This document shows positions 26,981-47,352 of a stretch of DNA of 64,000 bases, piece by piece (positions within the stretch are counted from its first letter, which is position 1; the number at the start of each line of letters is the position of its first letter). The position numbers and the translations under genes were made by a program. This stretch comes from a virus. Location of the stretch: IMG/VR virus record IMGVR_UViG_3300008261_004773, positions 1 through 64,000 of that record; one strand, written 5' to 3'. The notes beneath the pieces were generated by a model. That model saw only the letters and a program-made list of their open reading frames with translations. It searched no databases and was not told where the DNA came from.

Positions 26981-27057
26981 GGACTTGTAGCTCAGTCGGT
27001 CAGAGCGGCACACTCATAATGTGAAGGTCGATGGTTCGAACCCGTCCTAGTCCACCA
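26981..27057 (+). tRNA. tRNA-CAT (probably Ile2, otherwise elongator Met)
   Basis: CTCATAA loop; encoded CCA. Confidence 0.9.
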
Positions 27058-28880: not shown

Positions 28881-28935
28881 CAAAGAGGGTAAAACGTGTA
28901 GTAGCCTCAGGTGTGATATCCGCCACTACACTCCA

Positions 28936-29008: not shown

Positions 29009-29020
29009 CTGATAGGGTTT

Positions 29021-29110
29021 GTAGGTTGTAACGTCCCTTTTGGACACCCGTATTCAAAATCCAATTGATGTCAACGGTCAGTTGGGATAATCTGTTGACG
29101 AAAAACCTAC
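29021..29110 (+). ncRNA. Unassigned structured RNA with pseudoknot potential
   Basis: GTAGGTT/AACCTAC closing stem; two internal hairpins. Confidence 0.5.
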
Positions 29111-29114
29111 TCAA

Positions 29115-32217: not shown

Positions 32218-32433
32218 ATGAAATATATTTTTAGAGGACATACTGTGTTTGAGTACAAACCAGATGATAAGTTTGATAAGGTAGTACAAGGTCAAATTCA
32301 TGGTGCAATTCCTGCTTTTGACTTTTGTAAGATGATTGACGAAGACTATAAATTGTTAGGAGAATTTTTCAACACAGTTTATAGGCATACTCAGGGAGAA
32401 GATGTACCTTTGGAAGATATTGAAGTTTATTAG
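32218..32433 (+). CDS. Small hypothetical protein
   Basis: ORF between SnoaL gene and tRNA-Phe. Confidence 0.55.
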   Translation: MKYIFRGHTVFEYKPDDKFDKVVQGQIHGAIPAFDFCKMIDEDYKLLGEFFNTVYRHTQGEDVPLEDIEVY

Positions 32434-32434
32434 A

Positions 32435-32507
32435 GGTGACGTAGCTCAGTTGGTAGAGCACTTGACTGAAGATCAAGGTGTCGTCAGTTCGATTCTGACC
32501 GTTACCA
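32435..32507 (+). tRNA. tRNA-Phe(GAA)
   Basis: Cloverleaf. Confidence 0.93.
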
Positions 32508-32511
32508 CGGA

Positions 32512-32612
32512 TGTTGAGTAGTGGATACGTTATTGGGCTCAAGCTCATTAAGGCGAAACGGTACGCTTCTCTTTTCGAGACCACGTTATGGGTTCGAGTC
32601 CCATCTCAACAA
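32512..32612 (+). ncRNA. tRNA-like RNA lacking canonical D and anticodon arms
   Basis: TGTTGAG/CTCAACA acceptor; ATGGG-TTCGAGT-CCCAT T arm. Confidence 0.7.
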
Positions 32613-32617
32613 CAACC

Positions 32618-32689
32618 GACCTCTTAGCTCAGTGGAAGAGCTCTTCACTTTTAATGAAGAAGTCGATGGTTCGAATCCATCAGGGGTCA
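32618..32689 (+). tRNA. tRNA-Lys(TTT)
   Basis: Cloverleaf. Confidence 0.93.
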
Positions 32690-32782: not shown

Positions 32783-33025
32783 ATGGAAACAGATACAAAA
32801 GTATTGGATGATTTCAGAAGGAGAATGACAAAACTTGGAATTGAATGCAAGTTTGTAGGGAATTTTCCATGGGTATATCTTGACGAGATCAATGGGAAAA
32901 GAGTTACTGAACGTTTCTGTGGTAACCATGGTTTCACAATTGCTTTCCTACCTATCCGTAAGGGACAAAAAATGAATCTCACAGATATTGGGGAGATAAT
33001 GAAAGTGGTAAGAAAGTATAGATGA
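32783..33025 (+). CDS. Small hypothetical phage protein
   Basis: GNFPWVYLDEING motif; ORF between tRNAs. Confidence 0.6.
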   Translation: METDTKVLDDFRRRMTKLGIECKFVGNFPWVYLDEINGKRVTERFCGNHGFTIAFLPIRKGQKMNLTDIGEIMKVVRKYR

Positions 33026-33104: not shown

Positions 33105-33107
33105 CAA

Positions 33108-33241
33108 AAGGTTGATTGGGGAATGGTGATATCAATGACTCGAGAGTGTATTTCGGTCGGTATCATCGGAGTTGGGAGAAATACACCTGAGTAATGCCAA
33201 TCATAAAAGGGGTCGTCCACGCAACCATCTTCCCCTTTCCT
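33108..33241 (+). ncRNA. Unassigned structured RNA between tRNA-Trp and tRNA-Tyr
   Basis: TGATTGG/CCAATCA, GTGTATTTC/GAAATACAC and AAAGGGG/CCCCTTT helices. Confidence 0.6.
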
Positions 33242-33246
33242 AATTT

Positions 33247-46957: not shown

Positions 46958-47352
46958 TGGTGGAGATGACGGGAGTCGAACCCGTGTCTTGTTCACGAAC
47001 ACTATAAATGACTACACGTTTAGTACAACGTTGTTTCTCAACGTTACGAAATATTAGGTTAGATATATGTGGGAAACCAACCTACAAACAACCTGGTCTC
47101 AGAATTATTTTAAACGAGCTCTGACCTGTCACCCGTATATTGGACTTCTGTTCCTAGGTTAACGTCCTAATCGACCCGATATGTTGTTCTCTACGATTAC
47201 GCAGCAACAACGCTTTCTTCACGGATAAGACCGATAGCAGAAAGTTTTGCGAAAGTTTCGCCGTTTGTGTTTCAAATCAGTTTTTAAGGAGTTAATTCAG
47301 CTCCTACGTGCCATCTATAATATCACATGCCAATCAATGCCGTGACATCCCC
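46958..47352 (-). ncRNA. ssrA: tmRNA; tag GETFAKLSAIGLIREESVVAA (47197..47262)
   Basis: GGGGATG 5' end; GGGTTCGACTCCCGTCATCTCCACCA 3' end; tag ends AA-stop. Confidence 0.93.

Follow-up and report, generated by a model that had tools for sequence, protein, structure and literature searches.

What is a stretch of 101 bases doing inside an array of phage tRNA genes if it has the acceptor stem and the T arm of a tRNA and no anticodon arm between them? We addressed this question for an element in a virus record of 96,829 bp from IMG/VR, the first 64 kb of which (64,000 nucleotides, 35% G+C) are referred to below as the window. The CheckV completeness of the record is 31%, and the phage genome is thus probably about 300 kb. 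ARAGORN detected 23 tRNA genes and one tmRNA in the window. With a probability of roughly 0.7, we take the element to be a non-decoding small RNA on a tRNA frame, with a core that acts by sequence-specific binding. Its immediate surroundings are as follows.

32405..32412, + strand: TACCTTTG, a candidate Bacteroidota-type -7 promoter box, proposed from the placement of TAnnTTTG motifs
32435..32507, + strand: tRNA-Phe(GAA), the upstream neighbour (ARAGORN; Rfam tRNA, 72.2 bits)
32512..32612, + strand: the element
32618..32689, + strand: tRNA-Lys(UUU), the downstream neighbour (ARAGORN; Rfam, 71.1 bits)

The end of tRNA-Phe (32507/32508) lies 3-4 nt before the element, and tRNA-Lys starts (32618) 5 nt after it. 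Throughout the window, TAnnTTTG motifs were found 3-27 nt 5' of the first tRNA in most clusters, and also 5' of the tmRNA, starting at the following positions.

26969, 28112, 31717 and 32405, + strand: TAnnTTTG boxes upstream of the first tRNA of clusters or of the tmRNA
6027, 37846, 40552 and 47373, - strand: TAnnTTTG boxes upstream of the first tRNA of clusters or of the tmRNA

These boxes are likely Bacteroidota-type promoters indicating the phylum of the host, and the pattern as a whole would fit a Bacteroidota host. The box TACCTTTG would then drive a Phe-X-Lys-Cys unit in which X is the anticodon-less element. In all 23 tRNA genes of the window a C directly follows the discriminator, mostly as CA (e.g. 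at 32508, 32690 and 32768), and an encoded CCA is found in one of the 23, the tRNA-Met ending at 27054 (trailer CCA). The C after the discriminator looks like a phage-wide 3' trailer rule and may bear on 3' processing. The tmRNA (46958-47352, - strand; Rfam 90.9 bits) is located directly upstream of tRNA-Glu on the same strand, and its predicted tag, GETFAKLSAIGLIREESVVAA, is unusually long.

The preliminary description of this locus, made from the letters alone, had expected standard tRNA searches to return no canonical match here. ARAGORN with default settings was indeed silent, and the Rfam tRNA model gave 26.5 bits, below its gathering cut-off of 29, with a match that spans the acceptor and T arms only. 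The element was the sole sub-threshold tRNA match in the tRNA array of the window; the other long spacers at 33105-33246, 29009-29114 and 28882-28935 in the array yielded neither a sub-threshold tRNA nor a notable Rfam match. Apart from this weak tRNA match and a T-arm match to YrlA, no other Rfam family was detected at the element. Spurious open reading frames overlap it, and an RNA that tRNA finders and Rfam miss in this way goes unannotated in phage genomes. The folding energy (z = -1.81; 9 of 200 shuffles fold equally well) is by itself not convincing; the support for more than a chance fold is comparative.

When the features of a canonical tRNA were sought one by one, the 7-bp acceptor stem and the 5-bp T stem with a UUCRANY loop were present. 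Positions 10-13 have as their partner the strand ahead of the T arm, and 31 nt further in comes a hairpin that resembles a D arm. From 5' to 3' the element reads as follows.

32512..32518, + strand: acceptor stem, 5' strand UGUUGAG, paired with 32605-32611; double compensatory changes at 6 of 7 pairs
32519..32520, + strand: UA at the place of tRNA U8-A9, invariant in 17 distinct sequences
32521..32524, + strand: closing stem J, 5' strand GUGG, at the place of the 5' strand of the D stem, paired with 32581-32584
32525..32533, + strand: 9-nt junction strand, here AUACGUUAU; 6 of 9 columns invariant
32534..32547, + strand: hairpin 1, UGGGC-UCAA-GCUCA, 5 bp with a conserved G.U pair
32548..32551, + strand: 4-nt linker UUAA (GUAA in most members), UAA invariant
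32552..32567, + strand: hairpin 2, a D-arm look-alike, (G)GCG/CGC(T), 4-bp stem beginning with G.U and 8-nt loop AAACGGUA
32568..32580, + strand: hairpin 3, UCUC-UUUUC-GAGA, 4 bp and a 5-nt loop, the sole piece that resembles an anticodon arm
32581..32584, + strand: closing stem J, 3' strand CCAC, paired with 32521-32524 (covariation, RNAalifold)
32585..32587, + strand: 3-nt linker GUU (RUU family-wide) 5' of the T arm (alignment)
32588..32604, + strand: T arm AUGGG-UUCGAGU-CCCAU with a canonical T loop (Rfam tRNA alignment); double changes at 3 of 5 pairs
32605..32611, + strand: acceptor stem, 3' strand CUCAACA (covariation)
32612, + strand: discriminator A (A, U or G family-wide), followed by C (alignment)

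All stems listed in the preliminary description were found in place, base by base. Its statement that the D and anticodon arms are replaced holds for the anticodon arm, as there is no 5-bp stem with a 7-nt loop; it does not hold in full for the D arm, since a D-arm-like hairpin (32552-32567) survives inside the junction. The GUGG/CCAC stem encloses all three hairpins, with CCAC three bases 5' of the T arm, and two of its pairs show double changes from G-C to A-U (L025, L090). The 9-nt junction strand is AUAUGUAAG in nearly all members besides the window copy. Hairpin 1 shows double changes from U-A to C-G and from G-C to A-U. In hairpin 2 the loop AAACGGUA offers positions like A14, GG18/19 and A21 of a D loop, a likeness read from the sequence; the family loop is AAANGGU(N)A with UAA before it, and the corresponding D-arm signature is a 4-bp stem with the loop AAANGGUA. 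The stem of this hairpin covaries (second pair U-A or G-C, in a ratio of 10:7), and A, A, GG and A are conserved in its loop. We infer that hairpin 2 would dock on the canonical T loop and so form a tRNA elbow. In a single case, L079, a loop A is changed to G together with a change of the last linker U to C, like a Levitt-type pair. The loop of hairpin 3 is UUUUC in the window copy and in L028 only and UUUAC in the remaining members; its outer pair covaries (UA/CG/AU), and CUC/GAG is invariant in the alignment of 25 members described below (A3), with CUU in the later member L102. A pseudoknot between the hairpin 3 loop UUUAC and GUAAG strands can be drawn but is not supported, because the window variant alters both partners without compensation.

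Homologues were sought with an 80-aa open reading frame 170 nt downstream of the element (32783-33025) as the anchor. In five IMG/VR contigs (L001-L005; anchor protein 79% identical) tRNA-Phe directly adjoins tRNA-Lys and the element is absent; in four closer metagenome contigs (L024, L025, L026 and L028) it lies between the two. A covariance model, R1, was built from the element-bearing anchored contigs and separates the two kinds of sequence widely, with members at 100-126 bits and every ordinary tRNA at 28 bits or less. Further members were obtained by pattern scans of IMG/VR from different parts of the core and confirmed with R1. This brought the family to 27 full-length homologues with 19 distinct sequences, from phage contigs of lake metagenomes and IMG/VR, in one copy per record. 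Most were found by patterns that fix parts of hairpins 1 and 3, so that the apparent conservation there is inflated. The protein-anchored loci and the scans that leave parts of these hairpins free provide a partial control, and in them the UUUAC loop is still seen and hairpin 1 has compensatory changes (L089, L090 and L099). A scan with an 18-mer returned two true members and three non-members; L100 and L101 lie in apparent coding sequences. Phe-Lys gaps of 145 nt (L027) and of 65-69 nt (L007, L008 and L016) were scored with R1 and are not members.

Outside these contigs, the GenBank phages gave nothing close (tRNA-sized matches only), a pattern scan of 185,579 prokaryote genomes gave no match, and an exact 22-mer covering the T arm and acceptor gave none in IMG/VR. 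Literature searches found no published description of the family. The element is also absent from a 324-kb relative that is 97% complete; given this absence and that from L001-L005, its occurrence is patchy and the element is dispensable. At member loci the G+C content ranges from 31 to 50%, and the neighbouring proteins are 30-76% identical to those of the window phage or have no match there. At most loci the element is 3-6 nt from tRNAs, and these neighbours differ (between Phe and Lys, between Gly and Trp, or after Thr). At others (L079, L089 and L087) it stands alone among protein genes, hundreds of bases from any tRNA. That the element belongs to a conserved and previously undescribed RNA family of uncultured lake phages is well supported.

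To judge the fold itself we used alignment A3, which was fitted to the model and holds 25 sequences, 17 of them distinct. In A3, 99.6% of pair cells were paired, compared with 88.5% in column shuffles and 29-42% when the partners were slid. Double changes occurred in 16 of 29 pairs, with at least one in each of the six helices, and the covariation score of the 17 distinct sequences was reached in none of 500 shuffles. In a small unfitted MAFFT alignment of four sequences, nine pairs were already compensatory; A1 and A2, both made with MAFFT, gave the same structure, and RNAalifold independently returned the same six helices. G.U pairs are kept at three positions, and hence the + strand, which is also the strand of the flanking tRNAs, is the strand of the RNA. 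These data establish the fold, its conservation and its strand, as the locus itself establishes its place among tRNA genes.

Selection acts differently on the two parts of the molecule. Between members, identity is only 65-66% in the acceptor and T stems, where pairing is nonetheless kept, and reaches 88% over the inner 73 columns; of the 39 unpaired core columns, 23 never change. Stems that vary and still pair around a frozen core indicate that the outer frame needs shape only and that the core needs its sequence. Read from these alignments, the pattern is the opposite of what decay would leave. Thus the view of the preliminary description, that this is a tRNA-like non-coding RNA rather than a decayed tRNA, was borne out: the six helices covary, the core is more conserved than the stems, and the homologues, which it had proposed to examine for covariation, show constraint and not decay. 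The varying handle and the near-frozen core also show where the function lies, and they provide a concrete bait for pull-downs, structure work and genetics.

In our preferred reading, a non-decoding RNA with a sequence-specific core, the element would be transcribed together with tRNA-Phe, tRNA-Lys and tRNA-Cys. RNase P would cut at U32512, since a 7-bp acceptor stem stacked on a 5-bp T stem, its T loop presumably docked by the GG loop of hairpin 2, would present the substrate that tRNAs usually offer. Trimming would leave A32612 as the last encoded base, and with CCA attached the stable product would measure about 104 nt. A C follows the discriminator in 24 of 25 members, as it does in 23 of 23 tRNAs of the window, and this shared 3' trailer signature, together with the adjacency to tRNAs at most loci, makes co-processing plausible. 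Taken with the intact 7/5 minihelix and T loop, it supports, and does not prove, a presumed maturation in which RNase P and the usual 3' pathway free the RNA and CCA is then added. The role of the acceptor and T stems would then be that of a generic handle for processing and stability only. The specific function would reside in the inner junction, that is UA-GUGG, the AUAUGUAAG strand, hairpin 1, the D-like hairpin 2 and the short hairpin 3 with UUUAC, and this core would most likely bind a phage or host protein or RNA in a sequence-specific manner.

No protein gene is consistently linked to the element; the neighbours encode DUF6878, SnoaL-like, DUF6915 or unknown proteins, and the best candidate, a DUF6878 protein, occurs at 8 of 25 loci. 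A search of the phage genome for antisense targets gave chance-level 10-13-mers only, besides T-arm matches to its own tRNAs, and the 31%-complete record contains no gene for a CCA-adding enzyme, RtcB or Ro60. One possibility, which we advance tentatively, is that the RNA is a mobile effector, with a near-invariant core that captures one particular host factor whose normal ligand is tRNA, so as to block or divert it. That target might conceivably be an enzyme that modifies tRNA, a factor associated with the ribosome, or a defence that senses tRNA, such as an anticodon nuclease. A decoy for tRNA-targeting toxins, as put forward in the preliminary description, would be a possible role as well. 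The generic acceptor/T handle could, if this speculation is right, secure processing and stability in any host. A mobile effector would explain why the same core is found across phages that share few or no detected neighbour genes and range from 31 to 50% G+C.

Four other explanations were weighed against the non-decoding RNA. The first is that the RNA is charged with an amino acid and works off normal decoding, either in a tmRNA-like rescue or as an aminoacyl donor for non-ribosomal transfer, in which case the tRNA top half would be the functional part and not a mere handle. As read from the sequence, the 7/5 acceptor-T minihelix, the T loop and the D-like GG loop are what the CCA-adding enzyme, several synthetases and EF-Tu need; the topology is that of the tRNA-like domain of tmRNA, which this phage also encodes, and there is precedent in published irregular tRNAs and in B. 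cereus tRNA-Other, which are charged but unused in translation (PMC5389517). Against this, the discriminator may be A, U or G and variation affects six of seven acceptor pairs, which leaves no constant set of acceptor identity elements; 3:70 is U-A or C-G, whereas AlaRS requires G.U there for tmRNA; a tag reading frame is missing, and no synthetase-like or transferase neighbour was found. We consider a charged role unlikely.

The second explanation is that the element is a working decoding tRNA after all, in which an insertion of some 31-33 nt separates the acceptor stem from the D arm. On this view the D arm would be hairpin 2 and the anticodon arm hairpin 3. If so, the would-be anticodon loop CUUUACG of most members would carry the anticodon UUA of an ochre suppressor and the CUUUUCG of the window copy would carry UUU (Lys), assignments to which we give very little credit. 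Some observations do point this way. When about 25-33 nt are deleted from positions 9-44, default ARAGORN calls tRNA-Stop(tta) in L072 and L025, and the window copy, after deletions of this kind, is called as tRNA-Glu or tRNA-Lys; position 33 of the loop is a U, hairpin 2 makes a good D arm, and related phages do have odd tRNAs, such as one with an 8-nt anticodon loop in L010. The ARAGORN models obtained after deletion, however, have anticodon stems of 3 bp only, flanked by mismatches. An invariant C-G pair closes the loop to 5 nt, position 37 is C and not a purine, and the covarying stem J joins the would-be D-stem strand to the would-be variable region. A switch of the would-be anticodon between UUA and UUU among members could hardly be tolerated by a decoder. 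Nor does the genome call for a suppressor: 91% of the record is already covered by frames that run from stop to stop over 100 or more codons of the standard code, which leaves both an alternative genetic code and the need for a suppressor tRNA without support.

The preliminary description would have been overturned by a normal or intron-bearing tRNA fold, and neither relaxed ARAGORN nor exhaustive single deletions produced one. Relaxed ARAGORN returned a poor tRNA-Leu(caa) with a 29-nt intron and three G.U pairs in the anticodon stem, which we rejected, and all single deletions of 10-49 nt gave anticodon stems of 3 bp at best. A 5-bp anticodon stem with a 7-nt loop (U33, purine 37) is absent, and a forced 7-nt reading has C32 paired with G38 and C at 37. 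We conclude that the RNA cannot read codons and does not decode; a decoding tRNA with an insertion is very improbable.

The third explanation moves the function to the DNA or the precursor, as a tRNA-derived recombination or attachment site or as a cis spacer that orders the processing of the polycistronic tRNA transcript. Phage attachment sites often contain the 3' parts of tRNAs, and the position of the element in tRNA arrays shifts between loci; both count in its favour. A DNA site is at odds with acceptor strands that covary on both sides and with strand-specific G.U pairs, which reveal selection on RNA. In L079, L089 and L087 the element lies hundreds of bases from any tRNA, so there is no precursor to order, and a spacer would not need a conserved unpaired core. 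We therefore find a role of this kind scarcely credible.

Finally, a decaying tRNA pseudogene or a chance fold of the spacer has almost no probability left and appears, from the alignments, already contradicted: scores below both tRNA detector thresholds, the z-score of -1.81 and the absence from close relatives would suit it, but across 27 homologues at 31-50% G+C pairing is retained at 99.6% and each helix has compensatory changes, and the core, unpaired bases included, is more conserved than the stems and far more so than the neighbouring proteins.

Several other odd RNAs came to light in related phages. A second, unrelated anticodon-less RNA of tRNA shape is present in related lake phages (L008:5386-5468 and L007:6230-6318); here a 7-bp acceptor stem is followed by UA, by a closing stem AUGC(G)/(U)GCAU that surrounds two hairpins, and by a canonical T arm. 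ARAGORN does not call this RNA, and its second hairpin is longer in one copy than in the other. In L020, two RNAs of 130-145 nt (L020:6892-7036 and L020:7143-7273) combine a perfect or near-perfect acceptor stem and a canonical T arm with a long non-tRNA middle; they adjoin a 96-nt 'tRNA-Val(gac)', and none of these fits a normal cloverleaf. The RNA at L049:806-918 resembles a class II tRNA-Leu(UAA) with a hairpin of about 24 nt in the anticodon loop, too short for a group I intron. For L010:6105-6180 and L013:6105-6180 the ARAGORN output is a tRNA whose 8-nt loop has the four-base anticodon ccta, and this tRNA could be quadruplet-reading or amber-suppressor-like.

How does the element compare with known RNAs? 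With canonical tRNA (RF00005) it shares the 7-bp acceptor stem, U8-A9, the 5-bp T stem with a loop of UUCRANY type, the discriminator, a D-like GG hairpin, the 3' trailer rule of the phage tRNAs and the position in a tRNA array. It differs in having no 5-bp/7-nt anticodon arm, in its rewired D region and in its score (26.5 bits against 29). The irregular tRNAs found in polycistrons and the tRNA-Other group have extra loops or odd arms, and some are charged and unused in translation (Mukai et al. 2017, PMC5389517). They too are tRNA-shaped and clustered, but they keep an anticodon arm and many have 8/4 or 9/3 acceptor/T stems, whereas the element is 7/5 and has none.

The tRNA-like domain of tmRNA has the same succession of acceptor stem, joiner, closing helix around an inner domain, joiner and T arm, and likewise no anticodon. 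The element, in contrast, has no G3.U70, tag reading frame or pseudoknots, measures 101 nt against about 350, and has no Rfam tmRNA match. The suggestion in the preliminary description that the element might be Y-RNA-like was not upheld: Rfam YrlA (RF02553) scores 19.3 bits against a cut-off of 69, on the T arm only, and the record has no TROVE/Ro60 gene, as PF05731 (TROVE) found no match in its 96.8 kb, about 31% of the genome. YrlA of M. smegmatis is an RNase P substrate that acquires CCA, and some phages have members too (Chen et al. 2014, PMC4201824). The ends of YrlA form a Ro60-binding stem with GNCGAAN0-1G, and its gene lies within 4 kb of rsr (PMC4201824). Both are non-coding RNAs with a tRNA-like module, and the ends of the element form an acceptor stem, not a Ro-binding stem.

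The closest parallels are found in phages T5 and T4. The T5 record (GenBank AY543070) lists RNA1 and RNA2 as 'tRNA-like stable RNA with unknown functions' and RNA3 as 'putative tRNA-like RNA'. Like the element, these RNAs lie in a phage tRNA region on the strand of the tRNAs, abut tRNAs or each other, and have an acceptor stem and a canonical T arm around a non-tRNA middle, with lengths of 73-144 nt. RNA1 and RNA2 have a normal D arm in its normal place and an expanded anticodon arm, whereas in the element the partner of the D-stem position is the strand ahead of the T arm, and three hairpins lie within this stem. R1 reported no match on RNA1 or RNA2, and so there is no homology in sequence or core. 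T4 species 1 RNA (rnaC) is again a small stable RNA of a tRNA cluster, 6 nt from rnaD and beside tRNA-Arg. In its 3' 92 nt (L097:1410-1501, - strand) a non-tRNA interior is combined with an acceptor-like stem and the canonical T arm CCGGG-UUCGAAU-CCCGG, and this part gives a weak Rfam tRNA-Sec match. It differs from the element in its extra 5' domain, its length of 139 nt and its interior, and its R1 score of 17.3 bits is at the level of the ordinary T4 tRNAs; here, too, R1 finds no homology. No Rfam family covers rnaC or rnaD.

To our knowledge the function of rnaC has gone unexplained for decades, and we know of no one who has explained the tRNA-like stable RNAs of phage tRNA clusters, although they have been known since the era of T4 and T5. 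The element has what these RNAs have in common: it is encoded among phage tRNA genes and on their strand, and its acceptor-like stem and T arm come with no usable anticodon. It is of the same kind as the T4 and T5 tRNA-like stable RNAs, with a core and a wiring of its own. Its family provides a clean example of the kind, backed by covariation, that lacks the anticodon arm and has its D region remodelled into a closed junction of three hairpins. Should the effector reading prove true, this family, the second one in L007 and L008 and the RNAs of T4 and T5 would together make tRNA-framed RNAs a general phage toolkit.
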